Shown here: positions 11,408-32,525 of the stretch, piece by piece
Position numbering within the stretch: the first letter of the stretch is position 1
How the letters are laid out: the number at the start of each line of letters is the position of its first letter
NCBI GenBank assembly: GCA_016703025.1
Contig: JADJCV010000004.1
Coordinates: 1,775,412 to 1,839,411 of the forward strand
Length of the DNA: 64,000 nucleotides
Direction of reading: 5' to 3'
Source: Candidatus Avedoeria danica
Lineage (GTDB): Bacteria; Chloroflexota; Anaerolineae; Epilineales; Epilineaceae
Notes under the pieces: generated by a model
Seen by the model: the letters and a program-made list of their open reading frames with translations, nothing else
Database searches by the model: none
What the model was told of the DNA's origin: nothing
Position numbers and translations under genes: made by a program

Positions 11408-11410
11408 CCT

Positions 11411-12550: not shown

Positions 12551-12553
12551 GGG

Positions 12554-13576
12554 TCAGCCTTCCGATCCGGCAGCGCGGTGGGCACGATCATCGCCATCGC
12601 CGTTGCCATTTCCATTGCCATTGCCGTCGCCGCCGTCGGCGTCGTCGGCGTCGACCCGCTGCGCCACGGCCGTGACCCACGAGCCGCCGAGAGCCCGGTC
12701 GAGCAACCGGAACAGCGGCTGGGCGACGAGGCGGACCGGGCGGACGTGGAGCACGAAGCGCAGGCTTCGCGCGATCGGCGACGGCAGGCGCTCCTTGGCG
12801 GCCAGCGAGATCGCGAGCGCGGTCAGGAGATAGCTTTCGCTGAGGTACGTCCAGTGCGAGAGCCGGAACCCGGCGTCGGCCAGCGTTCGCTCCAGCGTCG
12901 ACCGGCTGAACACCACCAGGTGCCGCGGCGTGTCCCAGCCCGGCCAGCGCGTGCGCCAGAGCCTGGCCTCCCAGCCGTCGAGAACGGGCGTCGTGACGAC
13001 GAGCCACCCGCCCGGCTTGACGGACGCGGCCACGTGCCGCAGATCGTCGGCCGGATGGTCCAGGTGCTCGACGACGTCCCACAGCGTCGCGACGTCGAAC
13101 GCGGCCGCCGGCAGGTCGGCCCGGTCGACGGTGGTCGACCAGACCGGGATCCCGCGCGCCCGCGCCGCCTCGGCCGCCCACGGCGCCGGCTCGACGCCCG
13201 CGATCACGAGCCCGGCGGTGCGCGCCGCATGAAGAAACGCCCCCGTAGCGCACCCGACGTCCAGCACGCGCCCGCCCGCCCCGGCGAGGCCGCGGACGAG
13301 CGCGACGCGGCGGCGCAGGTCGCGGGCGCGAAACCAGCGGAGCAGCCAGGCGGGACCCTTGCCGCGCCGGACGTAGTCGGGCGGGTAGTAGTCCGCCATC
13401 GCCGCGGGCGCCGGCCGCTCGCGCAGGTAGGTGAGGCCGCAGGACGCGCATCTGGCGTAGCGGAACGTGCCGGGGCCGTCGAACCAGCGGTCGCGGGCGA
13501 CGTGGAGGGGGGTGTGGGCGTCCGTGCGGCAGGCGGGGCACGGGACGGTGATGGGTGTCGGGGCGGGGTGGGTCAT
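12554..13576 (-). CDS. Zinc-ribbon plus class I SAM-dependent methyltransferase domain protein
   Basis: N-terminal CPAC...CASCG ribbon, VLDVGCATG motif I, and VKPGGWLVVT. The C-terminus is a (GN)n low-complexity tail. Confidence 0.7.
   Translation of the reverse strand: MTHPAPTPITVPCPACRTDAHTPLHVARDRWFDGPGTFRYARCASCGLTYLRERPAPAAMADYYPPDYVRRGKGPAWLLRWFRARDLRRRVALVRGLAGAGGRVLDVGCATGAFLHAARTAGLVIAGVEPAPWAAEAARARGIPVWSTTVDRADLPAAAFDVATLWDVVEHLDHPADDLRHVAASVKPGGWLVVTTPVLDGWEARLWRTRWPGWDTPRHLVVFSRSTLERTLADAGFRLSHWTYLSESYLLTALAISLAAKERLPSPIARSLRFVLHVRPVRLVAQPLFRLLDRALGGSWVTAVAQRVDADDADGGDGNGNGNGNGDGDDRAHRAAGSEG
12590..12640. repeat. Hexanucleotide microsatellite (GCCATT-like), about 7 units, encoding the (GN)n tail
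   Basis: Read directly: catcgccattgccattgccatttccattgccattgcc. Confidence 0.6.
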
Positions 13577-13636
13577 GGGGGGTGGATGATACACGGGGGG
13601 TGGGCGCACGGATGCGTGTGCCGCTATGGCCCCGTT

Positions 13637-13719
13637 CTCAGATCACCATTCGTAGACCGCCAGACCACAGTGACCTGCGCCCCGATTGCCGGCGATCTCG
13701 CCTCAGATCACCTGTGATC
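13637..13719. promoter_or_regulatory. Direct repeat CTCAGATCACC (x2) with a GATCACctGTGATC palindrome, 60-140 bp upstream of the minus-strand methyltransferase-rsmD operon
   Basis: Read in the sequence. Candidate operator sites. Confidence 0.3.
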
Positions 13720-15389
13720 CGCAGCCGGACCAACGTTGTCTGAGCGGCCAACCATCTGCCTCCCATGAACGCAGCGCCCACCCGATCCGCATCCCAATCC
13801 CGGCGCGGACGCGCCAGCAGGACTGGGCCCGCGCTTGCACGCGGGGCCCGGCGATTTCCGGTGATCGGAGGTTAGCCCCTCAGTTTGGCGGCCCTTCGGC
13901 CGCCGGGGCAATGCCTTGAGGTCGGCCTTGATGCCGTTGTAGGTGGCAGCGTCGACCGAACCGACTTCCGAGATGTCGTTCACGATGACGACGATCGGCT
14001 GGTCGCTGGTGACGACCGCGGAGCCAAACGAGTTCACCGGCATCGCGTTCGGCGAGTTGCTCGGGAAGAACGTCCAGGCGTTCAACGGCTGGACCACGAC
14101 CTTGCACGCCGCGCCGCAGGAGCTCAGGCCAACGCCCTTGTCATCCGCGAACACGACTTCGATGTTCGCCGGCCCGGTGCCGATGTTCATCACCTGGATG
14201 CCCGTCGTGAACTTCGCCGTCGTGTGACCGCGGCGCGCCAGCGGCAAGGCCACCTTCGTCGCGCCCTGCGCCGCCGGAACCGCGTTGTACGCAGCCGACG
14301 TCTCGGTCAGGTTCTTCGAGTCGTTCACGATCGCCAGGATGTTGCCATCCGACTCGAGCACGGCCGAACCCACGCAGCCCTTCGGCAGCGTCGCCGCCGT
14401 CGGCTGGTAGAACACGTGGCTCGAACCCGCCGGAATGGCCGCCGGGCCCTCCGTGTACGAGTTGCCGGCGCACTCCGCCGAGCCACCGTAGTACTTCGCC
14501 GTCACGTTCACCGGCGCGTTCGTCGGGTTCACGACCGAGATACCGGTCGAGAAGCCCTTCGCCCCGCCCGCGTTCGTCCCCGCCAGCTGCTCCTTGCGGA
14601 TCAGCGGCGCGTACAGCTTCATCGCGGCGCCTTCCGGCGGCACGCCTTCGAACGCGTACACGGCCTTCTGGCTGCTCTCGATGTCGACGAACGACTGGAC
14701 GCCCACGTCCACCGCGCTCGTCACCTTCATCGAACCCAGGAAGCCGCCCGGCGTGTTCGGCTGCACGCCGATGAACGCCGCGTCCTTCGAAAGGTCGAGC
14801 GTCACCGACGAACCCGGCTGCACCTGGTACGTCTTGTTCACCACCGCCGTCGTGTTGCCCTGCGCGAACAGCTCAACGGTCACCGTGGCCACCTGGCCCG
14901 TGTCCGTGTTCTGGATCGACACGAGCGACGTCTGGCCGTAGTACTTGATGACCGACAACGGCACGAACACTTCCTTTGCCCGGCTGAACGTTCGAGTAGA
15001 TCGCCGCAGCGCCCGACGTCGTCCAGTCCGTGCGCGCGATCGCCGCGATCTGGCGGTCGGCGCTGATGATCGCCGCGTACGCGCCGTTCGTCAGCTCCGT
15101 CACCGTCGGCAGGTACATGTTCACCGCGCCGCCCGCCGGTACGTTCGGCCGCGACACCTGGATCGCCGTCACCGCCGACGTGCTCTGCTTGTAGAAGTCC
15201 GCCAACACCGTCGCCGACTGCGTCGCGTCCAGGTTCTGCACCTGGATACCCGTCGCGCCTGCTCCCTGGATCCCGGCCAGGCGGCTGGCGCCACACCGCC
15301 GGCTGCCCACCCTGGAACATCCCGGCCGCGGCCATCGCCACGCCCGCCACCACTCCAACACCGGCCGTCATTACGACGAGCTTCTTCAT
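13708..15389 (-). pseudogene. Secreted repeat-domain (CARDB-like, ~100-aa repeats) protein interrupted by two +1 frame changes
   Basis: AAGGAG sits 10 nt before the ATG at 15389, followed by the signal peptide MKKLVVMTAGVGVVAGVAMAAAG. The repeats then continue in a second frame (..TGIQVQNLDATQ..) and a third (..VSIQNTDTGQ.., ..TGIQVMNIGTGP..). The C-terminal about 70 aa of the last frame look like a wrong-frame readthrough. Confidence 0.55.
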
Positions 15390-15632
15390 CTCGGGTCCGC
15401 TCCTTGTGGATTCCTGTGAGATCGGGTTCGGCACCTCATCGGCGCCTCTGGGGGCCTCGACACCGGATTGCGGTGGAGGCATCCCCACCGACGGGAGCTC
15501 AGTGTAGGCGGCCGATCGGCCGCCGCCCATGGTCCGTGGGGTGCACCGTGGGCCGAATCGGCTACGACTTTCGGTGTATTGCCGAGGGAAAGCCCACGAA
15601 TCGGCGCCTCAACGCCCCGGATTCGGCTGCGA

Positions 15633-16544
15633 TCACGGCGCTTCGATCGTCGCGGTGTCCGTCACGGCCAGCGTGTCCGTCAGGAGGGCGGTGTCCGTCA
15701 GGACGTCGGTCACCGCGGGCTCGTCGTACGCGTCCGGCGCCTCGGGCGTGTAGTCCGACAAGTCGTCGTCGGCGCGATCCGTCGGGCGGCTCTCGAGCAG
15801 CTTCACCTGCGAGTCGGCCATGTAGTACGCGCTGCTGCCGTGATCGGCGATCCGCTGGATCGTCTGGAAGTCCTCGTAGGCGGCGTTGAACCGGCCGAGC
15901 GAGTAGTTCAGCATCGCCCGGTTCTGCCACGCGTCGATGTTGTTGTCGATCGCGATCGCCCGATCGAAGTCCGCCATCGCCTTGACGTTGTCGCCCCGGT
16001 TCTGGTGCGCGAAGCCGCGGTTGCCGAACGCCTGCGAAAGCTGGTCGTTGATCGCGAGCGCTTCGTCCAGCTTCTCGATCGCCGTCACGTAGTCCCCGTC
16101 GTCGATGTACAGCCGGCCGATGTTCGCGATCGCCTCGGCGTAGTCGGGCTTGAGTTCGAGCGCGGCATCGAGGTCCGCCCGCGCCTCGTCGCGCCGGCGC
16201 AGGTTGATGTAGGCCACGGCCCGGTTGTTCAGGACCTCGTAGCGGTTGTAGCCCTCCGGCGACGACGCCTCGGTCAGCTCGAGGGACTTCGTGCAATCGC
16301 CGACGGCCTCGTTGTGGAGCAGGAGCGCGTCGTTGGCGATGCAGCGGTTGGCGTACGCGAACGGCAGGTCGATCCCGCGCTCGATCGCCTTGTCGAACGC
16401 CAGGAGCGCCCGTTCGTTGTCTCCTTGCGCCAGATAGTTCTGCCCCGTGATGAGCGGGCTGCGGAAGGCGGAGCAGCCGGCCGTCAGCAGGGCGATAAGG
16501 ACGGATGAGGCGCTGACGACGCGGCGGATCGAGGGCTGGGTCAA
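15633..16544 (-). CDS. TPR-repeat lipoprotein
   Basis: Lipobox LLTAGC, then multiple TPR units (AYANRCIA.., AYINL.., AIANIG.., AFGNRG..). Confidence 0.75.
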   Translation of the reverse strand: MTQPSIRRVVSASSVLIALLTAGCSAFRSPLITGQNYLAQGDNERALLAFDKAIERGIDLPFAYANRCIANDALLLHNEAVGDCTKSLELTEASSPEGYNRYEVLNNRAVAYINLRRRDEARADLDAALELKPDYAEAIANIGRLYIDDGDYVTAIEKLDEALAINDQLSQAFGNRGFAHQNRGDNVKAMADFDRAIAIDNNIDAWQNRAMLNYSLGRFNAAYEDFQTIQRIADHGSSAYYMADSQVKLLESRPTDRADDDLSDYTPEAPDAYDEPAVTDVLTDTALLTDTLAVTDTATIEAP

Positions 16545-16731
16545 TTCAGGACTCCCGGGGATGGCGCACGCGGACGGAATGCTTCATCGAGCGTGCCGGA
16601 GGAGCGTACTGGAGGAGCGTGCCAGAGGCGTGCGGACGGCGCAATACGCCGAACGTCGTAGCGCGGTCGATCCGCGTCGATCCGGCGATGGGTCCCGGCA
16701 CGTCGAGGGGTCCGATGGTGGTAGTGACCCC

Positions 16732-17652
16732 CTAACCCCCTTCGTCGTCCGGGCGGGCGATCCGAACCCACGCCGTCGCCAACACGAGCCAGCTGACCTC
16801 GACGGCGATCATCCACAACCGCCATGCCACGACGAGCCCGAGCGCCACGGCGCTCGATCCGTACAGTGGCTCGAGGAGGAGGACCATCCCGAGATCCTTC
16901 ACCAGCCCGGTCAGCGGAAGCGGCCCCATCAGGTTGCCGAGCGCCACCGCCAGCGAGCCGATGCCGATCGCGTCCGGCAGGGAAGCCGTCGGGCTCACGG
17001 CGCGCATGAACGCGTACAGCGCCACGCCGGAGAGCATGAGCACGCCGACGCCGCGCGCCAGCCAGAACCGCACGTGGCCGCCGTCGAACGCCGGCAGGGT
17101 CGAGATGGCCGTCCGGCGCCCGGTCAGGCGGCCGCCGAAGGCGACGAGGCGCCGGAACACCACGGGCTGCACCGCCGCAAGGGCGAACGCCGCCACGACG
17201 ACGAGCACCCAGACGCCGACCGGCGGAGCGGACGCCGCCCACGGCAGCGTCGCGCCGTACAGGACGAGGCCGGCGACGCCGAGCACCACCCACTCGATCG
17301 TCGTCGCCGCACCGACGGCCAGCGCATCCGCGCGGCCGTACGCGGCCAGGCGGCCGAGCGGCGTCCAGATCCCGCCGGGCACGACATGCGCCAGCGCCGC
17401 AAGGGCGTAGCGCTGCGCGTGCTGCGCCGGACGCGCCCGCACGCCGAACGCCGCGACGATCCGCCGCCAAGTGTCGACCATCAGGATCGCGCCGGCCGTC
17501 TGGACCGTCCACGTGACGGCGAGCCACCGGGCGTCGAGCCGGAACGCACTCGCCAGCGTGCCCCGCACGCGCCGGAGCTCACCGTACAACCGCACGCCGA
17601 CGACGCCGACGACAACCGCCGCCAAGACGACGCCGGCCGCGAGCCGGAACAT
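16732..17652 (-). CDS. UPF0104 / lysylphosphatidylglycerol-synthase-TM-like (flippase-like) membrane protein
   Basis: 307-aa polytopic protein beginning MFRLAAGVVLAAVVV.., typical of the UPF0104 family. The same frame continues upstream without a stop, so the start is inferred. Confidence 0.65.
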   Translation of the reverse strand: MFRLAAGVVLAAVVVGVVGVRLYGELRRVRGTLASAFRLDARWLAVTWTVQTAGAILMVDTWRRIVAAFGVRARPAQHAQRYALAALAHVVPGGIWTPLGRLAAYGRADALAVGAATTIEWVVLGVAGLVLYGATLPWAASAPPVGVWVLVVVAAFALAAVQPVVFRRLVAFGGRLTGRRTAISTLPAFDGGHVRFWLARGVGVLMLSGVALYAFMRAVSPTASLPDAIGIGSLAVALGNLMGPLPLTGLVKDLGMVLLLEPLYGSSAVALGLVVAWRLWMIAVEVSWLVLATAWVRIARPDDEGG

Positions 17653-17768
17653 CCGCCAACGGCGATCCCGGAGGCGCCGAACGGGGAACGCCGCGCCGGC
17701 CCCGGATTGCCCGTACGCGGCGCCCGCGTCGGTGCCGCCGGTCTCGACGCCGGCCGCCCCGGCGCGCT

Positions 17769-18745
17769 TCAGTCCAGCACCACGCGCAGCCCGTTGGGCG
17801 GCGCCGGGTACATGTGGCGGTGTTCGTACAGCCACTGCGGGTGGGCGACGACGGCCTCGCCGTGTGCGTGCGCGGCACACGCGATGAACTCGCGCTTGGC
17901 GGCGAGCCACGGCACCGGCAGCGCGCTGACGCCGTTCAGCACGGCGTTGCCCGTCCCCCTTGACGAGCGAGCGCACATTGCGGCCGCGGTACGTCGGCCA
18001 GACGTTGGCCGTCGCGAGCTCGGCCACGCGGTAGTGGCTGGCCTCGAGCAGCCGCCGCACCTCGACGGGCGCGTACTCGCGCTGGTGGCGGCCGTAGATC
18101 CCGTAGCCGGAGTACGGAAACTCCGTCGGGCGGTTGAAGAACAGGTTCACGAGGCGCTTGATGTTGATGAAGTTCGGCACGGTGATGAACATCAGCCCGC
18201 CCGGCGCCAGGACCCGGTGGCTCTCGGCCAGCGTGTGGCTCGGGTTGTAGCCGAGGTGCTCGAGCGTCTCCATGAACAAGACCGCGTCGAAGTGGTCGTC
18301 CGGGTACGGGAAGGCATCGCGCTCGATGTTGAAGATCCGGACGTCGATCGTCAGGCGGGACGGCGGCCCGCCGAGGGCCGGCACGTCGAGGACGACGCGG
18401 CCGGACGGCTGCCGCGGCGCCTCGCCCGGCCACGACCCGGCCCTCGACGCTGACGGCGTCGATCTCGGCGCCGAACGCGCTGTGGACGAGCGTCGTGAAG
18501 AAGTACGGCGCCGCGCCGAGCTCGAGGATCCGCAGCGGCCGGCCGACGACGGGCGGCAGATGGCGATCGATCATCCGCAGGCTGAGCGCGGCCGACTTGC
18601 CGTGCAGCCAGGCGTACTTCTCGAGGTCGGCGCGCGCCCGGACCAACAGGTCGCGGTCGAGCGTGTCCTCGACGATCCGGACCTGGCCGAGCACCGCCGC
18701 AAGCGCGGCCGGATCCTTGGCCAGCCGCAGCACCTCAGCGTTCAT
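17769..18745 (-). pseudogene. Class I SAM-dependent methyltransferase split across three reading frames
   Basis: N-terminus (MNAEVLRLAK...ILELGAAPYFF..) in one frame, core (FPYPDDHFDAVLFMETLEHL..APGGLMFITVPN) in a second, and C-terminus (..PVPWLAAKREFIACAAHAHGE..VVLD*) in a third. The ATG at 18745 overlaps the GT2 stop (ATGA). Confidence 0.55.
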
Positions 18746-19813
18746 CGTCGCCCATCCCTTCCATATGTGCCGCTTGGGTCGGCGACGTCCGCTGACCCGA
18801 TGGCGGTCGGCCAGGCCGACGCCTGCCGCGACCCTACGTCGCGGCAGCCCGCCGCGAGCCCGCGCACGTAAGCCGCGCCGGTCGCCGGACGGCCGCCCAG
18901 GAGCGACCGCGCCAGCGTCAGCCCGAGGCTGACGATCCGATACGCGACGACGACCGCGCGGTGCGCGCCGCGGCTGTGGGCCGCATAGTACGGCACGCTC
19001 GAGCGCGCCAGCAGGTACGCCTGCCCCGGCGAGCCGACGCCGGTGGACGCCGCGACGTGGTGGGCGATGCGCGCGCTCGGCACGTGCGCCAGGCGGAAGC
19101 CGGCCGCGCGGGCGCGCAGGCAGAGATCGTGGTCCTCGTAGTAGACCCGGAAGCGCTCGTCGAACAGGCCGATCCGCTCCCAGAGGGCGCGGCGGACGAG
19201 ATGCAGCAGCCGTTCGCCCAGTCGATGTCGTACGGATGGGGGGAAGGCGGGTCGGCCGTCGTGTCGTGCGCGTCGAGGGTCCAGGGTCGCCGGAATCCGG
19301 CCGATGGCCAGACGGCGCCCGGCGGATCGAAGTACGTGACGGTCGGCGCGACGAGGCCGATCGGACCGCGACGCGGCGCACGGCCGGGCAGCGGCGCGGC
19401 GGCGAGCTCGGCCACGGCGGCGCCGGCGTACAGCTCCGTCAGCAGGGACGGCGCGGCGACGGTGTCGTTGTTCACGAGCAGCGTCCAGGCCGCACCTTCG
19501 TCCAACGCCCGCCGGATCCCGACGTTCGCGCCGGCCGCGAAGCCGAGATTCTCGGGGAGGGCCACGAGCACGACATGCGGAAACGCCGCGCGCCCGCCTC
19601 GGCCGAGCCGTCCGTCGACCCGTTGTCGACGACGACGATGCGGTGTTCGACACCGGCCGGGACGGACATCGCTTCCAGGCTCGCAAGGCACGCCAGCGTC
19701 AGCTCGCGGCGGTTCCAGTTCAGGACGATCGACGCCACGACGACATCGGGCGGCTCGGTGCGCATGATGGGTCGTGTCACCGTCGCCAGAGAGCGGATGA
19801 AGGAGTCGTTCAT
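18742..19813 (-). pseudogene. Family 2 glycosyltransferase split across three reading frames (two -1 shifts)
   Basis: N-terminus ..ASIVLNWNRRELT..IVVVDNGSTDGS in one frame, middle ..FPHVVLVALPENLGFAAGANVG..LVNNDT..YDIDWANGCC in a second, and C-terminus LVRRALWERIGLFDERFRVYYEDHDL.. in a third. Confidence 0.55.
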
Positions 19814-19866
19814 CGAAGCCGGCCGTGCATCCGCGGTCCCTCACCCGGCGCGCAGTGGCGCGCCTG

Positions 19867-20039
19867 CCCTCTCCCGCGGGGGCGGGAGAGGGCGGTCCAG
19901 CCGGGGGCCGACGCGTCGATCCACTCGATCCCCCACGCAATGGATGGATCCTTTCTCCCGCCCCCATGGGAGAAACGCGGTACCCAAACGCGCCTGCCGG
20001 CGCGTTTGGGGCCCAATGGTGGCAGCGCCGCAGGCGCTG
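19867..20039. repeat. Four consecutive perfect or near-perfect hairpins between the rSAM and GT2 genes
   Basis: CCCTCTCCCGC/GCGGGAGAGGG (19867-19892), TTTCTCCC/GGGAGAAA (19952-19975), CCCAAACGCGCC/GGCGCGTTTGGG (19983-20010), and CAGCGCC/GGCGCTG (20023-20039). Confidence 0.5.
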
Positions 20040-20082
20040 ACGGATAGAGGGAGAGTTCGGCGGGCATGACTTGACCGGCTCT

Positions 20083-21178
20083 CTAGAACCCTTGACGATC
20101 GAAGAACAGCTTGAACATCGCCACCTGATCGCGCAGGCTGCGGCTGCGGTAGCAGTTCAACAGGCACGGCGCCTTGCACGGCTTCATCTTGTCGCGCACG
20201 TCCTGGGCGTGGGCCGACTCCCAGATCTGGCGGGGGTGGGTCGTCCGGACGTTGCCGACGAGGTCATCGACGGTGTAGCAGAAGTTCACGTCGCCGCGCG
20301 GGCCGATGTTGAACGTGCTGTAGCGGACCATGCACTCGTCCGGTCGCGGGTGGCTGGAGGGGCTCGCGGAAGTAGTGCTGCATCGCCACGAGGTGCTCAT
20401 CGGGGTTCCAGACGGCTTTGCCGGCGCGCTTGAGTTCGCGCACGGCCTCAAGGGCATCGTGGACCGCGTCGGGGTCGCGCGGCCAGTGTGGGTTGCGCTC
20501 GAACCATGCCGGGTCCATCCCCTCGTCCGTCGCGAACGTCGGATACAGCGGCTGGAACAGGACGCGGTCGACGCCAAGGCCGAGGGCCCACTCGGCGGTG
20601 GCAGCCATGTCGGCGTACGTCTCCTCCATGATGATCGACGCCACGCCGAGAACGATGCTCGGGTCGCGGCGCAGGTTCAGCACGGCCTCGACGCAGCGGT
20701 CGTAGAGCGGCACGCCCCGGCAGCGGTCGTGCACCTCACGGTTGAGCGTGTCGATCGAGATCGACAGGAAGTCGGGTCCGACCTCGCGAATGCGGTCGCA
20801 GGCCGACGGCGTGAGGTACATCCCGTTCGTCGACATCTTCGTCTTGATGCCGATGTCGCGGCAGTGCGCCAGGATGTCGAACATCCCGCGCTTCTGGAAC
20901 GGCTCGCCGCCGGAGATGACGATGAAGAACGGCCCGAGCCAGGAGCGCAGGTCGTCGAGGACGCGCTTCCATTCGTCCACGTCCAACTCGTTGTGCGCCT
21001 GGAGCGTCCAGATGTCGCACATCGTACAGCGCGCGGCGCACGCGTCGGTGATGATCACCGATACCTTGTCGGGCTTGCCGAGCGGGCGATCGAGGCTGTA
21101 GCTTGCCTTCAGACGCAGGTGGTTCAAGCCCTGCGTGGCGGCGAACTGCACATCGGCCAGCTGGATATCTGTGCGCAT
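20083..21178 (-). pseudogene. Radical SAM / SPASM-domain enzyme (anSME-like size) with one +1 frame change
   Basis: N-terminal CAARCTMC (CX3CX2C) and the radical-SAM core lie in one frame. The C-terminal SPASM-like ..ECMVRYSTFNIGPRGDVNFCY..KPCKAPCLLNC.. lies in another. The junction is near 20300. Confidence 0.55.
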
Positions 21179-21311
21179 GGTGTGACCCCGTCAGAGGCGC
21201 CGGTTCATCGAACCAGCCGGTCGAACATCGTGGGCGATCATCGTCGCCGCGCATTGAGACAGCGGAAACGACCGCCGCGGGTCCGCATGGCACGGACCGG
21301 CGTGATCCCGG

Positions 21312-21341
21312 TCATCGTGCCCCGGACTCGTCCGGGGCACG
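21312..21341. terminator. Perfect 14-bp inverted repeat ATCGTGCCCCGGAC-tc-GTCCGGGGCACGAT immediately 3' of the GT2 stop
   Basis: Read directly from the sequence. It lies between the GT2 stop (21343) and the rSAM start (21178) on the minus-strand transcript. Confidence 0.4.
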
Positions 21342-21342
21342 A

Positions 21343-22197
21343 TCATAGCGCCGGATCGGCCGCACCGAGGCACCATGCCAGCTTGGTGGCGTACACCGCC
21401 GGCCACGTCAGCGGGTAGCGCCGCCCCGGGCGACCCGCACCGTACAGCCGCGCCGTCGCCACCGCCGCGATGGCGGGTGCCAGCGCGTACAGCGCGAGCG
21501 GTCGGTAGATCCACGTCACACCGTCGAAGGCCGTCGGATGGCGCTGTCGCACGCCGACCATCCACCGCCCGCTCATGTACCAGTGGCGCCACATGTCGGC
21601 GGCCGTCGTCCGCGTCGGCCGGTGGAAGATCCACGCCGCGGGGTCGAGGAACGGTCGATGGCCGGCCGCCGCCAGCCGGATCGTCCAGTCGATGTCCTCG
21701 CCGCAGCGCAAACCGGGGTCCATCGCACCGACGTCGTCGACCGCCGTGGCCCGCACGCTCAGGTTCAGCGTCGGCAGGAAGGGGCGCGGGCCGGCGGGCA
21801 GGTGCGCGTCCACGTTGTGGAACATGGACAGGTTGTCCGCCAGTTGCCAGTACGGCCGCGGATCGTAGAGGACGGCGCCGCCCACGACGGTCTCGCCGGC
21901 GGCGTGCCGGGCGAGGTGGGCGGCCAGCCAGCCGGGTTCGGCGACGCAGTCCGCATCGAGGAAGACGTAGACGTCCCCGCTCGCCGCCTGGATGCCGCGG
22001 TTCCGCGCCCCGGCCGGCCATTCCGGCCGCTCGGTGTACAAGAATCGCACCCGCGGTTCGCCCGCCAGGCGCCCCGGACCGTCGCGGCCGACGACGATGA
22101 CCTCGTGCGCCCGCGCGCCCGCCTGGGCGAACACGCTCGCCACGGCGCGGTCGACGACGGGCGAGTCCAGGTTCGGGATGATGACCGAGGCCTTCAT
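21343..22197 (-). CDS. Family 2 glycosyltransferase
   Basis: MKASVIIPNLDSP.., DAD motif (FLDADC). ATGA overlap with the GT4 stop at 22194-22197. Confidence 0.75.
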   Translation of the reverse strand: MKASVIIPNLDSPVVDRAVASVFAQAGARAHEVIVVGRDGPGRLAGEPRVRFLYTERPEWPAGARNRGIQAASGDVYVFLDADCVAEPGWLAAHLARHAAGETVVGGAVLYDPRPYWQLADNLSMFHNVDAHLPAGPRPFLPTLNLSVRATAVDDVGAMDPGLRCGEDIDWTIRLAAAGHRPFLDPAAWIFHRPTRTTAADMWRHWYMSGRWMVGVRQRHPTAFDGVTWIYRPLALYALAPAIAAVATARLYGAGRPGRRYPLTWPAVYATKLAWCLGAADPAL

Positions 22198-23474
22198 CGC
22201 GCCGTCCCGGGCGCCGGCGCGCGATCGACGGCAGCGGCCTCGCCGACGCCCGCGGCCCCGTCGCCAACGCCCGCGTCGCCGACCAAGCCGACGAGCGCCG
22301 CCACGTACGCCGCCCAGCCGATCCGGCCCCGCGCCGCGACGGACCCCGCGCGCAGCCGCGCCGCCAGCCCTGGCTCCTCGCACAGCCGCACCACGGCCGC
22401 GGCCAGCGCCCGGGCATCCCCCGGCGGCACGACGAGCCCGGCGTCGCCGTCGACGACGACCTCGGGCAGCCCGCCGACATCCGTCACGATCATCGGGACG
22501 CCGTGCTCGATCGCCAACGTCAGGACGCCGCTCGAGGTGGCGGCGCGGTAGGGCAGGACGACGGCGTCGGCGGACGCGAACAACGGGGCCACTTCCTCGT
22601 TCTGCACGTAGCCGTCGCGGAGCGTCACCGCGTCGCCGAGTCCGAGCCGATCGGCCTGTGCGCGGAACGCATCGGCCCTCTGCCAGAACTCGCCGGCGAC
22701 GACGAGCCGCACGCCCGGCACGGCCTCGCGGGCGATGGCGAGCGCGTCGATGAGGACATCCAAGCCCTTGTACGGGCGGACGAGGCCGAAGAAGAGGAGC
22801 GTCGGCGCCGGCCCGATCGGCAGCGGTCGAACTTCATCGGGGGCGGCATCGCCTGGCGCGGTGGCGTCGAGCGCGGCATCGCCGGGCATGGCGCCGTCCG
22901 CGCCGTCGCCCGCCAGGTGGTGGAGCGGCAGCGCGGCGCGCGCCACGGCGCCCGGCATCCGCGCCCGCTCGCCGACGATGCCCTCCAGGACGGCGACGAG
23001 CGGCGTCGCGTGGACGAGCCAGCGGTCGCCGCGGCGGAGCGCGAGCGCGGTCAGCCAACGGGCCAACCGGCCGGGCGCGTCGTGCGGCAGGACATTGTGG
23101 CAGATCAGCACGATCGGCGGGCGCCGGCCGCGCCGGCCGAGGAGGGCGCTGAAGCCGACGACGAACGGGGCGAAGAACGGCACCCACCAGACGAGGAGAA
23201 CGGCATCCGGCCGTGCGGCGCGCACGCGGCGGGCGACGGCGGGCCAGCCGATCGGCCAGAGCGGCGCGATGATCCGTTCGGCCGGAACGCGCACCGGCTG
23301 TTCGGACGGGTCGATGACGGTCCGGCCCGGGAAGAGCCAAGCGGGGTAGAGGCTGCGAAAGGTCAGCGTCGTGACCTCGTGGCCGGCACCGGCGAGCGCC
23401 CGCGCCAGCAGGGCGGTGTGCTGGGCGATCCCGCCACGATACGGCCACACCGGTCCGATCAGGACCCAGCGCAT
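22194..23474 (-). CDS. Glycosyltransferase family 4 (GT-B, GT1/GT4-type)
   Basis: N-terminus MRWVLIGPVWPYRGGIAQH.. and a C-terminal EX7E-like region (LPYRAATSSGVLTLAIEHGVPMIVTDVGGLPEVV). Confidence 0.75.
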   Translation of the reverse strand: MRWVLIGPVWPYRGGIAQHTALLARALAGAGHEVTTLTFRSLYPAWLFPGRTVIDPSEQPVRVPAERIIAPLWPIGWPAVARRVRAARPDAVLLVWWVPFFAPFVVGFSALLGRRGRRPPIVLICHNVLPHDAPGRLARWLTALALRRGDRWLVHATPLVAVLEGIVGERARMPGAVARAALPLHHLAGDGADGAMPGDAALDATAPGDAAPDEVRPLPIGPAPTLLFFGLVRPYKGLDVLIDALAIAREAVPGVRLVVAGEFWQRADAFRAQADRLGLGDAVTLRDGYVQNEEVAPLFASADAVVLPYRAATSSGVLTLAIEHGVPMIVTDVGGLPEVVVDGDAGLVVPPGDARALAAAVVRLCEEPGLAARLRAGSVAARGRIGWAAYVAALVGLVGDAGVGDGAAGVGEAAAVDRAPAPGTAR

Positions 23475-23491
23475 CAGGCGGTCGACGCGGT

Positions 23492-24127
23492 CTAGGGCTG
23501 GTCCAGCCGGAAGCCGTAGCCCCGGATGGTCACCACATAGCTGTGCCGGGCGTCGTGCTCGGCCAGGCGCTGCCGGCAGCGCTTGACGAGAGCGTCGATC
23601 GAATCGTCGCTCACGCCGTCCCGCTCGGTCTCGGGCCAGACGGCGCCGACGATCGACTCGCGCGGCACCGGCCCGCCGTCGGCGTCGAGGAGGACCTTGA
23701 TCAGCCCGAACTGCTGTGCCGAGAGCGGCGGCGCCAGCACCTGGCCGTTCACGAAGACGTGCATCGTCTCGGGGTCGATCCGGATGCCGCGACCGGAGAA
23801 AGCGAGCGGCGCGGTGGCGTCGGCATCCACGTACCACAGCTTGTAGCGGGCCGAGATCGAGATGTCGTCACCGTCCTTCAGCGGTCGCGGTTCGCCGGTC
23901 ACGGGCTGGCCGTTCAGCCATGTCCCGTTCTTGCTGCCGTTGTCCACGAGGACGTAGCCGCGGCCGCTGCGGCGCACGGCGGCGTGCTGACGCGACACCG
24001 AGCGATCCGGCAAGCAGATCGCACACTCGGCGTCCCGGCCGATGACGATGACCTCGCGCCCGGCCAGCGGCCAGGTGCGCTCGGCAGCGCCATCGCGGAG
24101 CACGATCATCGCCCCTTCTTCTGCCAC
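23492..24127 (-). CDS. FHA-domain protein with C-terminal OmpR/PhoB-type winged-helix DNA-binding domain
   Basis: FHA signature (VIVIGRDAECAICLPDRSVSRQHAAV...GSKNGTWLNG) plus a trans_reg_C-like C-terminus (..VKRCRQRLAEHD..YVVTIRGYGFRL). Alternative start at 24109. Confidence 0.7.
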   Translation of the reverse strand: MAEEGAMIVLRDGAAERTWPLAGREVIVIGRDAECAICLPDRSVSRQHAAVRRSGRGYVLVDNGSKNGTWLNGQPVTGEPRPLKDGDDISISARYKLWYVDADATAPLAFSGRGIRIDPETMHVFVNGQVLAPPLSAQQFGLIKVLLDADGGPVPRESIVGAVWPETERDGVSDDSIDALVKRCRQRLAEHDARHSYVVTIRGYGFRLDQP

Positions 24128-24202
24128 GGTGCCCTCCCGCGACGACTATAGCACGACCGCGGGGCCGCATCGGCCGACGCGGAGCGCGCCGGGAATCGCG
24201 CC

Positions 24203-24237
24203 GCACGCGCTTGACCCGCCGGCCGCCGTCGCCCTAC
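24203..24237 (+). promoter_or_regulatory. Sigma-70-like promoter (-35 TTGACC, 17-nt spacer, -10 TACCCT) for the Ser/Thr kinase gene
   Basis: Hexamers read in the divergent intergenic region between the FHA gene and the kinase gene. Confidence 0.3.
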
Positions 24238-24246
24238 CCTGCCCGT

Positions 24247-25335
24247 ATGCGCAACCTCGAGCCCGACATCGTGCTTCGCGACCGCTACCGCTTGGTCGAG
24301 CTCGTCGGTCAAGGCGGTGCCGGCGCGGTCTGGCGTGCGGACGACCTGCGTTTGGCCGGCCGCGTCACCGCCGTCAAGGCGATCCTGCCGGACGTCGGCT
24401 CGGCGGCCGACCGGGCCGATCGCCAGGCACAGTTCCACCGCGAGGCCAGCATGTTGGCGCGCCTCGACCATCCGGCCCTGCCCAAGGTCTCGGACTATTT
24501 CGAGGACGACGGGACGGACTTCCTGGTCATGGACTACGTCGACGGGCCCGACCTTCGCCAGGTCGTCGATGCCGCGCTGGCGGCGGGCGAGCTCCTCGAC
24601 GTCGAGCGTGTGCTCGGCTGGGCCGATCAGCTCCTCGACGCCGTCGCCTACCTGCACGCCCAGTCGCCGCCCGTGCTGCACCGCGACATCAAGCCGGCGA
24701 ACATCAAGCTCGTGGCGGGCGAACGGATCAAGCTCGTCGACTTCGGCCTCGTCAAGGCGATGGACCCGGCCGACCCCCGGACGCTCACCGTGGCGCGCGG
24801 CGTCGGATCGCTGCCCTACACGCCGCTCGAGCAGTATGCCGGCGACACCGGCCACACGGACGTCCGGGCCGACCTCTACGCCGTCGGCGCGACGCTGTAC
24901 CACCTCATGACCGGCCGGCCGCCGGACACCGCCCAGGACCGCTTCCTGCTGCCCAATGCGCTCACCCGCCCGCGCCGGCTCAACCCCGACGTGCCGTCGC
25001 GCGTCGAGTCCGCCATCCTGACGGCGATGGCGCTCCACCCCGAGCGCCGGCCGCCGACGGCCGAGGCGCTGCGCGCGCTCCTCGTCGGCGACGCGCCGGT
25101 CCTCGGCAGCGTCGAGCTCGGTACGGCGGGGCTGGCGTGGCGGCAGGCGATCTGGGACAACGCCGGCCTGATCGCGCTCGTCGCGCTGCTCGTGTTGCTC
25201 ACCGTCGTCGCGACCTGGCAGGCGACCGCCGCGAGCGCGCCGGCCGCGGCGCCGACGGCAAGCGCTGGATCCACCGCCACCGCACCGATCGCCACGCCGA
25301 CGGGGCCAGCGGCAGCAGCGCCAGCAGGAAGCTGA
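24247..25335 (+). CDS. Hanks-type Ser/Thr protein kinase with C-terminal TM anchor
   Basis: Gly loop GQGGAGAVW, VAVK-like lysine, HRDIKPANI catalytic loop, DFG, and SLPYTPLEQ. A TM helix lies near the C-terminus. Confidence 0.8.
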   Translation: MRNLEPDIVLRDRYRLVELVGQGGAGAVWRADDLRLAGRVTAVKAILPDVGSAADRADRQAQFHREASMLARLDHPALPKVSDYFEDDGTDFLVMDYVDGPDLRQVVDAALAAGELLDVERVLGWADQLLDAVAYLHAQSPPVLHRDIKPANIKLVAGERIKLVDFGLVKAMDPADPRTLTVARGVGSLPYTPLEQYAGDTGHTDVRADLYAVGATLYHLMTGRPPDTAQDRFLLPNALTRPRRLNPDVPSRVESAILTAMALHPERRPPTAEALRALLVGDAPVLGSVELGTAGLAWRQAIWDNAGLIALVALLVLLTVVATWQATAASAPAAAPTASAGSTATAPIATPTGPAAAAPAGS

Positions 25336-27967
25336 GCACCGGCGCCTGGTAAGCCGGGTTCCAACTGCGCGGCCAGAGTCGGCCGCCGCTCGGCAGCCAG
25401 CTGGGCATGCGCAACCCGCCGACGAGGACGAGCAAGTAGCCCGCCAGCCCGCAAGCGAGGCTGAGCAGGAAGAGCCGCACCGCACGTGAAGGCACGCGCG
25501 GTCCCTCGCCGGCACCGAAGACGATCACGCCGGCCAGCAGGATCAGCGTCAAGCTGAAGAGCAGGATGCTCCAGTCGGCCGGCAGCTGTCGGATCGCCAG
25601 CGGCCCTTGGCCGGCGGTCGGCGTCGGGACGTCGAGGACGCTGCCGCTGACGTGGACGACGAGCGGTGCGCTGGCCAGCCCGCTGTCCAGCACGGCGGTG
25701 ATCTCGATGTCGCCCTGGCGATCCGCCGGGAGCGTGACGGTTGCCCGGCCATCGACGGTCTGCCCGACGACGTCGCGCAGGTAGACGTCCTCCGCGGGGT
25801 CGTAGCCGCGGACGGTGACCGTCGTGCCGTCGGGCACGGGGTGGCCATTGGCGTCCCGGATCTCGCCCGTACGCACCGTGATCCGCCCGCCGTGGGCGAC
25901 CGCGGCGTCCGGCCGGCCGCCGACCAAGCTGAGGTCGATCACCTGGCCGGATGCGGGGAGGAGCTGGGTGGCGAGGTCGTAGCCGGCGCCCGGCACCGAG
26001 ACCGGGCTCGCCCCGACCGCCGCCTCGTCCCCGAACACGGCGCGCAAGGCCACGCGCACGAACGGCCCCCCCGGACTGTAGACGGCATAGTAGGCGGCCA
26101 GCCGGGAAATCTCGCTGGCGTCGAGGCCGTACGGCGCGTCGAACGCAACGGCCACCAGTCGCTGGCCGGCCGACTCGGTCTCACTGGCCTGCAGGAACAG
26201 CCGCGGCGCATCCGAGCCCGGCGCCTCGGTCGGCCGGACGTCCCGCATGAAGAAGACGATCCAGTCGGCCTGGGCGACACCGCGCGCCACTTCGTCCTGC
26301 CGTGCCGCGCTCAACGGCGGCACGAGCGATGGGTTGTTCTCGGCAGCGATCCGGCCGGTGGCCCCGAGCCATGCCCGAAGCTCGCGGGCGGTCACGACGC
26401 CGACGTCCTCGGCGCGGACGATTCGCCGCGTGCCCGACCCCGTCGGGCCGTACGTCAGCAGGCACGTCGCGAGGACCTCGTCGGGGTCGAGCACCCACTG
26501 GGGCGGACACCCGTCGCACTCCCGGCTGTCGCGCGCGTCGACGACGAACAGCAGGCGATCGCCGGATTGCGGCGACGGCACCGGGGCACGGCCACCGCCG
26601 GCCGTCGGCGGGGCGAACAGCGTGAGCGCGGCGCGGGCGACGGCCTGCGCATCGTCGCCCCCCAGTCCGGTGGACGCAGGCGCGGCCTCGGCATCGACGG
26701 CGACGCCGTCCGGCGTGGCCGCAGCGTACAGCGCGCGCTTGCGGGCCAGGACGCGGCGCAGCGCCCGGTCGACGGCCTCGCGAACGTTGTCGTCCTCCTC
26801 GTAGGCCGCGGTGAGCCAGGCGAGCGCCTCCTCGATCTCCGCGGGCGAACGGGTCGGGTCGTCGGGCACGTCGAAGCCGGACAGGTTGAGGACGTCGTTG
26901 CCGGCCAGGAGCGCCTCGCGCACGACGCGGCGCACATTGAACGCCGCTCCCTGCGGGTCGGTGTAGCGCCGCACGCCGGCCAGCCCGAGTCCGGGGCTGA
27001 AGAGGAGCCCGCCGCCCTCCCGCCAGGCATCGAGGCTCGGTAGCTGGCCGCGCAGGTAGGCAAGGCCGCTGCCGTCGAGGGACAGCGGCCGATCGATCTG
27101 CCGCTGGACACCGCGGAACCGGACGTGGGTCGTCACGAGCGCGTCGACGACGCTGGAGCGGTTGTCCCGCGGCTCGACAACGGCCACGAACGGCACGAGC
27201 TCGGTGCGCCGCAGGTCGTCCAGGCTGCTCTCCACGATCGGCAACTCGGCGGTTTGGCTCCGGTCGGCGCCGCCGACGCCCGGGAAGCTGCCGGCGGCCA
27301 CGGCCACCCGCCCGTCGCTGCCGCGGTGGATGCCGCCGACGATCTCCCGGCCGAGCTTGGCCACCCACGACGGGTTGCCGCCGAGCGCCCGGGCGCCGAG
27401 GTCGCCGGTGCTGCCCGGGCGCGGCTGGGCGACGACATCCAGGTTGGGACCGAGCCAAAGGTTGACGCCGACGGCCCGCAGCTCACGCCCGACGACCTCG
27501 CCGACGCGCCCGGCCAACGCCGGGTCCCACGTGGCGCCGAGGGCCATCGCGCTCGGTACGTCGGTCATGCCGCCGCGCAGCGGGCTGAGCGGGAACGCCG
27601 CCCCGTCGCTGTCGACGGCAATCCACAGCGGGACGAACGCCGCGTGTCGTGCGGCGCGCGCCTGCAGCGCGTTCGCCAGCAGCGCCACCTGGCGCGGCGT
27701 GTCAGGTGCGTTCAAAAAGTTGCCGGCGCGCGGGTCGACGATGACGCCGCCGACACCCTGATCGACGAGGCGGGCGATCGCGCGATCGTCGGACACGCCG
27801 TCGCCCCGGAACGGCACGAGGAGGAGCTGGCCGACGCGCTCCGCGGGGGTCATGTCGGCGATCAGGGCGTCGATCTCGCCGGCGGCCGTTGCCGCTCGGG
27901 GCGGCACGGCGGTCGCACAGGACGCGGCGAGGGCCGCGGCGAAGCAGAGAAGTGTTCGGGTGCGCAC
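25199..27967 (-). CDS. Glycoside hydrolase family 3 (NagZ-like beta-N-acetylhexosaminidase) with a large C-terminal extension and TM helices
   Basis: GH3 N-terminal domain (TPAERVGQLLLVPF, ..VGGVIV..). The start is uncertain: the GTG at 27967 gives a plausible signal peptide. The 3' end overlaps the convergent kinase gene by about 137 bp. Confidence 0.6.
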   Translation of the reverse strand: MRTRTLLCFAAALAASCATAVPPRAATAAGEIDALIADMTPAERVGQLLLVPFRGDGVSDDRAIARLVDQGVGGVIVDPRAGNFLNAPDTPRQVALLANALQARAARHAAFVPLWIAVDSDGAAFPLSPLRGGMTDVPSAMALGATWDPALAGRVGEVVGRELRAVGVNLWLGPNLDVVAQPRPGSTGDLGARALGGNPSWVAKLGREIVGGIHRGSDGRVAVAAGSFPGVGGADRSQTAELPIVESSLDDLRRTELVPFVAVVEPRDNRSSVVDALVTTHVRFRGVQRQIDRPLSLDGSGLAYLRGQLPSLDAWREGGGLLFSPGLGLAGVRRYTDPQGAAFNVRRVVREALLAGNDVLNLSGFDVPDDPTRSPAEIEEALAWLTAAYEEDDNVREAVDRALRRVLARKRALYAAATPDGVAVDAEAAPASTGLGGDDAQAVARAALTLFAPPTAGGGRAPVPSPQSGDRLLFVVDARDSRECDGCPPQWVLDPDEVLATCLLTYGPTGSGTRRIVRAEDVGVVTARELRAWLGATGRIAAENNPSLVPPLSAARQDEVARGVAQADWIVFFMRDVRPTEAPGSDAPRLFLQASETESAGQRLVAVAFDAPYGLDASEISRLAAYYAVYSPGGPFVRVALRAVFGDEAAVGASPVSVPGAGYDLATQLLPASGQVIDLSLVGGRPDAAVAHGGRITVRTGEIRDANGHPVPDGTTVTVRGYDPAEDVYLRDVVGQTVDGRATVTLPADRQGDIEITAVLDSGLASAPLVVHVSGSVLDVPTPTAGQGPLAIRQLPADWSILLFSLTLILLAGVIVFGAGEGPRVPSRAVRLFLLSLACGLAGYLLVLVGGLRMPSWLPSGGRLWPRSWNPAYQAPVLSFLLALLPLAPSAWRSVRWRWIQRLPSAPRPARSRRSPARSRRR

Positions 27968-28603
27968 GGTGGGCAAGGATAGGGAATCCGCGGCCGAACG
28001 CCAGCGCCGGCCGCGCGGGGCGGTCGGGCGCCGACGCCGTGTCGGCCGTCGGACGCGACCGCACGACCCGGTTGACAGAATGGCCCGCGGCATGTTAATG
28101 TAGTTGTAACTCGCACGCTCGCACGGCGGCCGACGAAGGGTTGCGACAACGCCCTTCACCGAGTTGTGCGCGTGGACCTGAGGGCCGACTCGGGGTCGTT
28201 TGGCGGTCGAGCCGGCCCAACGACAGTCTACGGAGGTCATCCGGCCCGTGTGCGCAGCGACCGGTGTTATGCATGAAGAGAGGCGCCTGGCGACGAAGTC
28301 CTGGGTCTGCCCCTGCCCGAGCTCTGACGGGACCGCGCGCCGGCGCCTCTCGCCCGTGCATAACGGTGTTGGGAAATTGGGCGTTACGCACGGTTGTCGA
28401 TTGCGACTTCATTCCTGGACGATCCCCCATGCGTAGGGAGTGACGCAATACGGCCGATAGACACGGACCGCGGAGCGGCCCGTCTTCTCAGTTCGGGTCT
28501 CCTCGGTGCGATTGCGTTGAGGAGCGACGAGTCCGGCAATGGCGGGCTGTCAGAGATTGCCGTTTCCGCTGCCCCGGACGGCGAACGCGATGCGGAGGAA
28601 CAA

Positions 28604-32392: not shown

Positions 32393-32460
32393 CGGTCTGA
32401 CGGACCGGACGGCGCAGGCGATCAGACCGATTCACCGCCGCTTCGATTTCTGACGACAAG

Positions 32461-32498
32461 ACGGCGCCCTGGATCCCGCAAGGGAACCAGGGCGCCGT
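32461..32498. terminator. Bidirectional rho-independent-type terminator (ACGGCGCCCTGG-N14-CCAGGGCGCCGT, followed by TGTT)
   Basis: 12-bp perfect stem between the convergent S8 gene and the secreted-protein gene. Confidence 0.5.
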
Positions 32499-32525
32499 TG
32501 TTCGCGTCGTGAGGACGAGCTGCCG

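Follow-up and report, generated by a model that had tools for sequence, protein, structure and literature searches.

What is made by a string of glycosyltransferase genes that encloses an enzyme of the radical S-adenosylmethionine (SAM) type, and is its expression tied to the protein kinase gene lying next to it? This question is raised by a 64,000-nucleotide stretch of the genome of Candidatus Avedoeria danica (Chloroflexota, Anaerolineae; GenBank assembly GCA_016703025.1, contig JADJCV010000004.1, positions 1,775,412 to 1,839,411 of the forward strand), hereafter called the window. A Hanks-type Ser/Thr kinase is encoded on its plus strand; diverging from it, the minus strand encodes, in this order, a regulator combining an FHA domain with a winged helix-turn-helix (wHTH) domain, a glycosyltransferase of family GT4, a first glycosyltransferase of family GT2 (GT2a), a radical SAM enzyme (rSAM), a second GT2 enzyme (GT2b), a SAM-dependent methyltransferase (MT), a polytopic membrane protein and a tetratricopeptide repeat (TPR) lipoprotein (Table 1). 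The reading that is slightly favoured here, taken as a whole, is that the locus encodes a pathway which makes a membrane glycolipid or a lipid-linked glycan and in which one step is the radical tailoring of a sugar, beside a phospho-threonine signalling unit, and that the frameshifts found in three of its genes are errors. The cluster would thus vary known kinds of system, namely operons that pair a glycosyltransferase with an MprF-like flippase, sugar-tailoring radical SAM enzymes, and regulation by Ser/Thr protein kinases, FHA domains and winged helices. As the G+C content of the stretch is about 72 %, reading frames were picked by third-position GC (GC3) and homology. Domain calls are from Pfam scans, family membership was judged by NCBIfam scores against the model cut-offs, and gene neighbourhoods were compared among homologous loci fetched for this purpose (L001 to L093). 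All domains named in a preliminary description, made from the sequence alone, were recovered at their positions with strong Pfam statistics.

The arrangement of the cluster recurs in relatives. Indeed, the same gene order is repeated in at least ten independent contigs, so the arrangement can be taken as not due to chance. The full order, from a glycoside hydrolase family 3 (GH3) gene through the kinase and the divergent FHA-wHTH regulator to GT4, GT2a, rSAM, GT2b, MT, membrane protein and TPR lipoprotein, is present in L002, L009, L010, L011 and L091, and is followed as far as the contig end in L001, L012, L018 and L019. A core made up of GT2a, rSAM, GT2b/MT, membrane protein and TPR lipoprotein is found without kinase, FHA protein or GT4 in L005, L006, L014, L015 and L020, where rSAM identity is about 70 %, and the rSAM gene also lies beside GT2 genes in L003, L007 and L021. 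In clusters at 51-58 % identity, the GT4/GT2/rSAM/GT2/MT set is kept and a second rSAM, a Wzx-type flippase or YfhO is added. GT2b and MT are fused into a single protein in L002 (708 aa), L005 (664 aa) and L011, and the TPR lipoprotein gene keeps its place downstream of the cluster whether or not the kinase pair is present. Conservation as a unit, which the preliminary description requires, is thus seen for the glycosyltransferase/rSAM core, which recurs across metagenome-assembled genomes (MAGs) of Chloroflexota, and not for the kinase/FHA-wHTH pair, which is linked to it in one subclade only.

The rSAM enzyme, once its frame is reconstructed, has 43 close homologues of about 360 aa, the named ones being from Chloroflexi or Anaerolineae. 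In this family (68 % mean column identity), the motif C47-x3-C51-x2-C54 (CX3CX2C) is invariant in 23 sequences, as are six further Cys residues (C162, C283, C301, C335, C339 and C343); C162 and C106 lie in the core. The C-terminus matches the SPASM Pfam family (PF13186) with 32.6 bits against a cut-off of 21.5. The stretch C283-x12-G296-x4-C301 corresponds to the first half of the canonical seven-Cys SPASM motif (CX9-15GX4C...CX2CX5CX3C...C, with two auxiliary clusters), whereas the second half reads C335-x3-C339-x3-C343, which leaves five invariant C-terminal Cys against the canonical seven. The SPASM label given to the enzyme previously was overstated: the domain match and the first half of the motif agree with it, the motif as a whole being incomplete. 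Two closely related orthologues of the enzyme were scanned against NCBIfam and reached no family, with best scores of 75-77 bits against cut-offs of 300-650, 57-59 bits against 265 for the MftC model and 47-48 bits against 400 for the BlsE model; the anSME model was not among the best 25 of the 34-43 matches of either orthologue. The enzyme thus does not classify as any known maturase, in keeping with the preliminary description.

Nor was a sulfatase or a conserved precursor peptide found in the vicinity. No Sulfatase domain was detected among the open reading frames (ORFs) scanned in 2513..11410 and 11999..41139, and a gene of the Sulfatase family is present only in the distant locus L003, about 9 kb from the cluster. 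Among relatives, the length of the intergenic gaps of the cluster varies between 2 and 299 nt, with non-triplet indels, so that no conserved precursor ORF exists. These two results agree with the earlier remark that neither a sulfatase nor a peptide precursor lies nearby. The AF2 model of the enzyme (pLDDT 87) has a lone helix (residues 7-29) before the core and no RRE (PqqD-like) domain N-terminal to CX3CX2C. In a Foldseek search, the model is similar in fold to solved SPASM/twitch enzymes, the closest being the sugar-nucleoside decarboxylase BlsE, with DesII also in the list; the structures of SkfB, SuiB and anSME score close to BlsE. In other phyla, relatives of the enzyme are encoded beside two GT2 genes (L022, 40 % identity) and beside Wzy_C and GHL15 genes (L064, 34 %). 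The lack of a curated family, of an RRE and of a precursor ORF, together with the GT2 and Wzy_C neighbours retained at 34-40 % identity, points to a substrate of carbohydrate type, so far as sequence and model can tell; with the MprF-type fold of the membrane protein described below, the carbohydrate or lipid-linked substrate put forward previously is plausible.

Comparison with characterised radical SAM enzymes gives likenesses rather than kinship. BlsE (cytosylglucuronate decarboxylase), DesII and BtrN act on sugars; they share 17-18 % identity with the cluster rSAM, have an unlike Cys pattern and belong to antibiotic pathways, not to envelope operons with glycosyltransferases and flippases. 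The radical SAM enzymes Cds (calditol synthase) and HpnJ (hopanoid) remodel lipid-bound sugars, and HpnJ acts after the GT2 enzyme HpnI (PMC13459092). Their likeness to the cluster lies in the remodelling of a sugar attached to a membrane lipid, that is, in pathway logic only: no sequence or fold relationship was tested for or found, and the lipids concerned are archaeal tetraethers and hopanoids.

Two readings in which the substrate is a peptide or a protein have to be considered. In the first, the cluster would make a ribosomally synthesised and post-translationally modified peptide or a mycofactocin-like redox cofactor: rSAM would mature a small peptide, the GT2 enzymes would glycosylate it and MT would methylate it, in the manner of MftC, MftF and MftM, the last being the methyltransferase of the mycofactocin system. 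The co-occurrence of a radical SAM/SPASM enzyme, a GT2 enzyme and a methyltransferase does recall the mycofactocin locus (Haft 2011, PMC3023750). The best NCBIfam matches of the two GT2 enzymes are also of this kind (MftF-like for GT2a, 95 bits; MftF for GT2b, 64 bits), but with a cut-off of 280 neither is a member, and the MftC score given above is also far below its own cut-off. Moreover, no MftA, MftB, MftD, MftE, PqqD/RRE gene, peptidase or conserved small ORF is present, the Mft partner genes being absent from all syntenic loci, and in relatives the intergenic gaps go down to 2-72 nt with non-triplet indels. This reading is very improbable.

In the second, the target would be a protein. 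The rSAM enzyme would modify the TPR lipoprotein or a 490-aa secreted protein before export, as anSME does on sulfatases, the glycosyltransferases and MT would glycosylate that protein, and the MprF-like protein would flip the lipid-linked sugar donor. SPASM enzymes with solved structures act mostly on peptides or proteins, and SkfB, SuiB and anSME score close to BlsE; the TPR lipoprotein gene adjoins both types of cluster and is followed, in the window, in L002 and in L091, by the gene of a signal-anchored secreted protein; and the archaeal N-glycosylation proteins AglD contain UPF0104 domains (PMC5898192). However, neither an RRE nor another peptide-binding N-terminal domain is present in rSAM, no oligosaccharyltransferase (STT3/PglB/PglL-type) or GT-C enzyme was detected by Pfam in the window cluster, distant relatives retain the GT2 neighbours and not the TPR or secreted-protein ones, and the 490-aa protein is detectable in few loci only. 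Protein modification is accordingly regarded as unlikely. The 490-aa protein itself (13915..15389, minus strand) is signal-anchored, rich in Thr, Val, Ala and Gly, encoded in a patch of lower G+C and without Pfam or NCBIfam match; its gene lies downstream of the cluster in L002 and L091, and its frame is broken in the window (15292 and 14977). A role at the cell surface or in a sheath is conceivable.

The lipid side of the favoured glycolipid or lipid-linked glycan pathway comes from the membrane protein. The window protein has no Pfam match at E<=1 and no NCBIfam match, and PF03706 is matched by three of eight syntenic orthologues (in L002 with 43.7 bits against 33.4, over profile positions 4-298 of 302). 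When its AF2 model (pLDDT 81) was compared with the PDB by Foldseek, MprF structures took the first five places (TMq 0.50-0.62, about 315 columns), and TMq fell to about 0.15 at the sixth; a profile search against PDB sequences gave nothing, and the fold search alone was informative. On the strength of the orthologue matches and of the MprF-only fold match, the UPF0104 assignment made beforehand appears right. Domains of this kind (PplT) frequently have GT-A, GT-B, kinase and SAM-methyltransferase domains as fusion partners or as neighbours, also in Chloroflexi (bioRxiv 10.1101/2022.03.11.483950).

Operons with a comparable make-up are known. The gpgSDF operon of Pseudomonas aeruginosa and the hexSDF operon of Clostridioides difficile combine a glycosyltransferase with a UPF0104 flippase, encoded by the third gene, and make glycolipids (PMC12713373). 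As in the cluster, one operon encodes a cytoplasmic glycosyltransferase (of family GT4 in the case of gpgS), an enzyme for tailoring and a putative flippase of the stand-alone UPF0104/MprF-like type; what these operons yield is a membrane lipid that bears a modified sugar as its head group, as is proposed for the cluster. There, tailoring is done by a deacetylase, whereas the cluster has rSAM and MT, three glycosyltransferases and, according to Pfam, no deacetylase domain. The GT4 enzyme reaches no NCBIfam equivalog and scores 41.7 bits against 480 with the GpgS model (GlcN_PG_synth). The cluster is therefore not a member of the gpgSDF/hexSDF type, with which it shares only the pairing of a glycosyltransferase with a flippase-fold protein. 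Literature searches for the combination of a radical SAM enzyme, glycosyltransferases and UPF0104, incomplete in coverage, found no described pathway, in line with what had been stated at the outset.

From these components, the following pathway can be proposed. GT4, GT2a, rSAM, GT2b, MT, the MprF-like protein and the TPR lipoprotein would form an assembly line for a glycoconjugate at the cytoplasmic face of the membrane. The glycosyltransferases would put sugars onto a lipid acceptor, MT would O-methylate a sugar, and rSAM would tailor a nucleotide sugar or a lipid-bound sugar by oxidation, epimerisation, decarboxylation, deoxygenation or ring contraction. Once complete, the lipid would be brought to the outer leaflet by the MprF-like protein; there, outside the membrane, the exported TPR lipoprotein may act on it. 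A small glycoconjugate anchored in the membrane would result, be it the head group of a glycolipid or a short glycan linked to a lipid.

A polymer has to be weighed against this. In a conventional pathway for a secreted or cell-wall polysaccharide, a repeat unit would be built on polyprenyl phosphate, rSAM would act on a soluble nucleotide sugar, as BlsE and DesII act on nucleotide-linked sugars, and the export and polymerisation genes would lie elsewhere. GT2a and GT2b resemble, with scores below the cut-off, the exopolysaccharide protein EpsD and rhamnosyl- and galactofuranosyl-transferases, and distant orthologous clusters or relatives carry a Wzx-type flippase (Polysacc_synt, L003), a 974-aa YfhO protein (L007) or Wzy_C (L064), from which a polymer or a teichoic-acid-like decoration is the alternative. 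These genes are present only in such distant relatives. In the window, no priming phosphoglycosyltransferase, Wzx, Wzy or ABC exporter was found among the ORFs of 11999..32392, and the cluster and its close relatives, which also lack a chain-length regulator, have the MprF-type fold instead, whose characterised partners are phospholipid or glycolipid head-group pathways (PMC12713373). Because none of these polymer genes is present in the subclade, the gene content argues for a glycolipid rather than a polymer, and the polysaccharide reading is held to be rather doubtful. One or two extra rSAM/SPASM genes are present in the distant clusters (L003:11255-12454, L007:4108-5223 and L007:11156-12271), which suggests, from gene content, a family of related glycan-tailoring loci.

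The genes for rSAM, GT2b and MT are each broken over two or three reading frames in the window, and five single-base indels account for this (+C at 20362, -T at 19594, -C at 19201, +G at 18443, +G at 17959). The rSAM frame is shifted by the 1-nt insertion at 20362 (CCC to CCCC), that of GT2b is split by the deletions at 19594 and 19201, the frame changes being visible in a tblastn comparison with the fusion protein of L002, and that of MT by the insertions at 18443 and 17959. None of the five is found in L009, L010 or L011 (about 87-93 % nucleotide identity), and all are also absent from three assemblies 99.4-99.6 % identical to the window, which were found by a homologue search with the membrane protein: L091, a 1.945-Mb NCBI contig of the same species (GCA_963852785.1), and L092 and L093, two independent Logan assemblies. 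Two of these three come from other sequencing runs. Each of the three has all genes unbroken (rSAM 364 aa, GT2b 357 aa, MT 324 aa, and the downstream 490-aa gene). Over the 2.4 kb from 20362 to 17959, five indels and a single substitution set the window apart from L091, while in the upstream 7.3 kb it differs by 18 substitutions and no indel. Four of the five indels alter the length of short G or C runs, and GC3 is at least 0.9 in every gene fragment. On the window branch, changes at codon positions 1+2 versus 3 number 4:14 in rSAM and 1:8 in MT, small counts without excess at positions 1+2; the same count for GT2b is noisy on both branches. A codon-position Viterbi scan of the whole window found frame breaks essentially confined to about 15-20.4 kb.

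Because three nearly identical assemblies are intact, and because a ratio of five indels to one substitution is the opposite of natural divergence and typical of consensus errors, the five frameshifts are very probably assembly or sequencing errors in a poorly polished stretch. A decaying operon, the reading first adopted, was dropped on these same two grounds. That rSAM, GT2b, MT and the 490-aa gene are true pseudogenes, marking a very recent, strain-specific loss of the pathway, is quite unlikely. It would explain why, of eight window-specific indels, seven fall inside genes in a 5.4-kb stretch next to 7.3 kb that has none, and it would suit a variable region, since synteny with L091 stops about 1.3 kb beyond, at transposases of L091; the intact assemblies, the indel ratio against a 99.4 % identical genome, the G/C runs, the high GC3 and the lack of a non-synonymous-type excess all speak against it. 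The eight indels (20362, 19594, 19201, 18443, 17959, 15455, 15292 and 14977), which none of the three 99.4-99.6 % identical assemblies shares, form a cluster of single-base changes that suggests a locally unpolished stretch of the source assembly. The end of synteny with L091, at about 13660 in the window, is a strain-variable junction beside the indel-rich stretch; beyond it, L091:13995-20921 has Transposase_mut and rve-type transposase genes, and the window has a Methyltransf_23 gene and rsmD. More generally, apparent pseudogenes in MAG sequence should be compared with sister assemblies before they are interpreted.

As to control, the kinase has intact HRDIKPAN, DFG and PLE motifs, as read from its translation; it spans the membrane once, by a helix at residues 306-324, with a tail of some 38 aa on the extracytoplasmic side, and its gene model is that called in the 99.4 % identical L091. 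It scores 190 bits against 450 with the PknB_PASTA model and no PASTA domain is present. In the regulator, an FHA domain (residues 27-91) precedes a Trans_reg_C domain (residues 135-208), and the FHA domain keeps the canonical phospho-threonine-binding residues G30-R31, S45-x-x-H48 and N67-G68. Neither a receiver (Response_reg) nor a BTAD domain was detected by Pfam, and the matches of response-regulator models, with scores far short of the cut-offs, are confined to the C-terminal 95-100 residues. In a search for this architecture, full-length matches made up at least 75 of the 150 best representatives of 50 %-identity clusters; the FHA-wHTH architecture of about 210 aa is thus common, and no characterised member of it was found.

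The nearest characterised analogue is the PknH-EmbR pair of Mycobacterium tuberculosis, which governs the envelope arabinosyltransferase genes embCAB and in which the FHA domain is needed for the interaction of kinase and regulator (PMC4601284). As here, a membrane Hanks kinase is combined with a transcription factor carrying an OmpR-type winged helix and an FHA domain. However, EmbR is a protein of the SARP family built as wHTH-BTAD-FHA, whereas the window regulator is FHA-wHTH, 211 aa long and without BTAD, and is therefore not a SARP/EmbR member; the window kinase, unlike PknH, is without an extracellular sensor domain. By this analogy, a phospho-threonine switch acting through the FHA-wHTH protein, as the earlier description had it, is plausible: the GH3 hydrolase, the single-pass kinase and the regulator would form a signalling unit in which the autophosphorylated kinase is read by the FHA domain and DNA binding by the winged helix is altered. 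The regulator is the first gene of the minus-strand string and its stop codon is 17 nt from the GT4 start, a distance kept in every locus of the subclade; in this subclade it would set the transcription of the string.

In the divergent intergenic region, the alignment of ten genomes contains, on the kinase strand, a conserved TTGACC-N17-TACCCT element; GTCAA is invariant in the alignment. With its end about 6 nt from the kinase ATG, this element makes it probable that the kinase transcript has no leader. Close relatives share two motifs upstream of the regulator gene: an extended -10-like element, GTGCTATAGTC (= TGCTATAGT), and a GGGAGGG Shine-Dalgarno sequence. We infer the promoters of this region from these motifs, a generic scan for sigma-70 promoters and terminators having given nothing above chance. 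The GH3 protein, the most persistent neighbour of the kinase/FHA-wHTH pair, has two C-terminal transmembrane helices and is weakly NagZ-like (50.8 bits against 207 with the NCBIfam beta-N-acetylhexosaminidase model). The convergent 3' ends of the kinase and GH3 genes overlap by 137 nt (25199..25335), and those in L001, L002 and L088 overlap by 137, 23 and 4 nt, respectively.

Several observations weigh against the proposal of a regulated lipid-linked pathway. No lipid-acceptor-defining enzyme, priming phosphoglycosyltransferase or sugar-nucleotide synthesis gene is recognisable in the cluster, and flippase activity of MprF-like proteins has been shown for aminoacyl-phosphatidylglycerol only, GpgF being a putative flippase (PMC12713373). 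The kinase/FHA-wHTH pair is missing from seven orthologous clusters. In L088 and L089, whose FHA-wHTH homologues are 46-47 % identical, the trio of GH3, kinase and divergent regulator is followed by unrelated genes, with no glycosyltransferase or rSAM. In L013, opposite-strand genes for an M23 peptidase and an EamA transporter lie between the regulator-GT4-GT2a part and an rSAM-GT2b-MT-flippase-MT-TPR part. The kinase promoter element apart, the ten kinase/regulator intergenic regions have no operator that is conserved in all of them. Translational coupling, which the preliminary description had extended to the whole operon, is only partial: GT4/GT2a and GT2b/MT overlap by 4 nt, and elsewhere the genes are separated by 17, 164, 269, 116 and 187 nt. 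The five frame-breaking indels in rSAM, GT2b and MT had also gone unnoticed in that description. The bunching of the indels in 5.4 kb, with none in the adjacent 7.3 kb, would not be given by a uniform error process, and a strain-specific burst of slippage mutations is still a conceivable source of them. As pair and cluster each occur alone (the pair in L088 and L089, the cluster in L005 and others), the link between them may be recent or incidental. From the trio kept without glycosyltransferase genes in L088 and L089, it follows that two modules were joined in this subclade and that the oldest partner of the regulator pair is the GH3 gene, not the glycosyltransferase operon.

A more far-reaching proposal is possible, though less likely than not. 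The rSAM enzyme would carry out an undescribed radical reaction on a lipid-bound or nucleotide-bound sugar, such as C-epimerisation, the contraction of a ring or the formation of a C-C bond; this would yield a methylated envelope glycolipid specific to Chloroflexota and exported by an MprF-type flippase, and the compact FHA-wHTH proteins would be widespread one-component factors that read the phospho-threonine of a kinase instead of using a receiver, here coupling cell-wall turnover by GH3 to glycolipid synthesis. The envelopes of Anaerolineae and Ardenticatenia, bacteria abundant as filaments in wastewater and sediments, are poorly characterised, and the cluster is a compact, conserved eight-gene candidate pathway for a lineage-specific glycolipid or lipid-linked glycan. 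It includes a highly conserved radical SAM family of about 360 aa without a characterised member, and the pairing of kinase and FHA-wHTH regulator offers a route to study how phospho-threonine signals are wired to transcription outside Actinobacteria.

Table 1. Features of the kinase and glycosyltransferase locus, with positions in the window.
Feature	Coordinates	Strand	Domain evidence or basis
Hanks-type Ser/Thr kinase, 362 aa	24247..25335	+	Pkinase (PF00069), E 2.8e-32
Divergent intergenic region	24128..24246		Alignment of 10 orthologous regions
FHA + Trans_reg_C (OmpR-type winged helix) regulator, 211 aa	23492..24127	-	E 1.8e-22 (FHA) and 4.8e-12 (Trans_reg_C)
GT4 (GT-B) glycosyltransferase, 426 aa	22194..23474	-	Glyco_trans_1_4, E 5.3e-29; Glycos_transf_1; Glyco_trans_4_4
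GT2a glycosyltransferase, 284 aa	21343..22197	-	Glycos_transf_2, E 1.8e-15
Radical SAM enzyme with SPASM-like C-terminus, 364 aa intact	20083..21178	-	Radical_SAM (PF04055), E 8e-24; SPASM, E 1e-7
GC-rich spacer between rSAM and GT2b, 269 nt	19814..20082		
GT2b glycosyltransferase, 357 aa intact	18742..19813	-	Pfam GT2 fragments across three frames
SAM-dependent methyltransferase (MT), 324 aa intact	17769..18745	-	Methyltransf_11; Methyltransf_23
Polytopic membrane protein, 306 aa	16732..17652	-	MprF flippase-domain fold (LPG_synthase_TM / UPF0104 / 'PplT')
TPR lipoprotein, LTAGC lipobox, 303 aa	15633..16544	-	TPR_1, E 1.3e-25
GH3 glycoside hydrolase, membrane-anchored	25199..28240	-	Glyco_hydro_3, E 2.5e-26

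The spacer between rSAM and GT2b contains several perfect hairpins, e.g. CCCAAACGCGCC-GGCA-GGCGCGTTTGGG. Kept in the same species (L091), it is down to 2 nt in L009, whose identity is 93 %. The idea of a mobile element or of a repeat family was rejected, the spacer being single-copy in the window, present among the fetched loci only in the same species and without Rfam match. No terminator-like site was found in it by the generic scan; it may be an internal terminator, an attenuator or an insertion scar.

Outside the cluster, a secreted protein of 1332 aa with a fervidolysin-like prodomain, a subtilase domain and two CAP domains is encoded at 28394..32392 on the plus strand, and is a neighbour of the GH3 gene also in L001 and L002. 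It is followed on the minus strand by four large ORFs without Pfam match (32526..38117) and by a 988-aa SdrD_B-like protein (38173..41139), in which the codon-position GC of the stretch 38940..39536 resembles coding on the opposite strand. In L005 (1-6704), a CFX6-type genome, the cluster adjoins two 1300-aa proteins with TCAD9, NACHT and FGE-sulfatase domains, which are probably unrelated to it.

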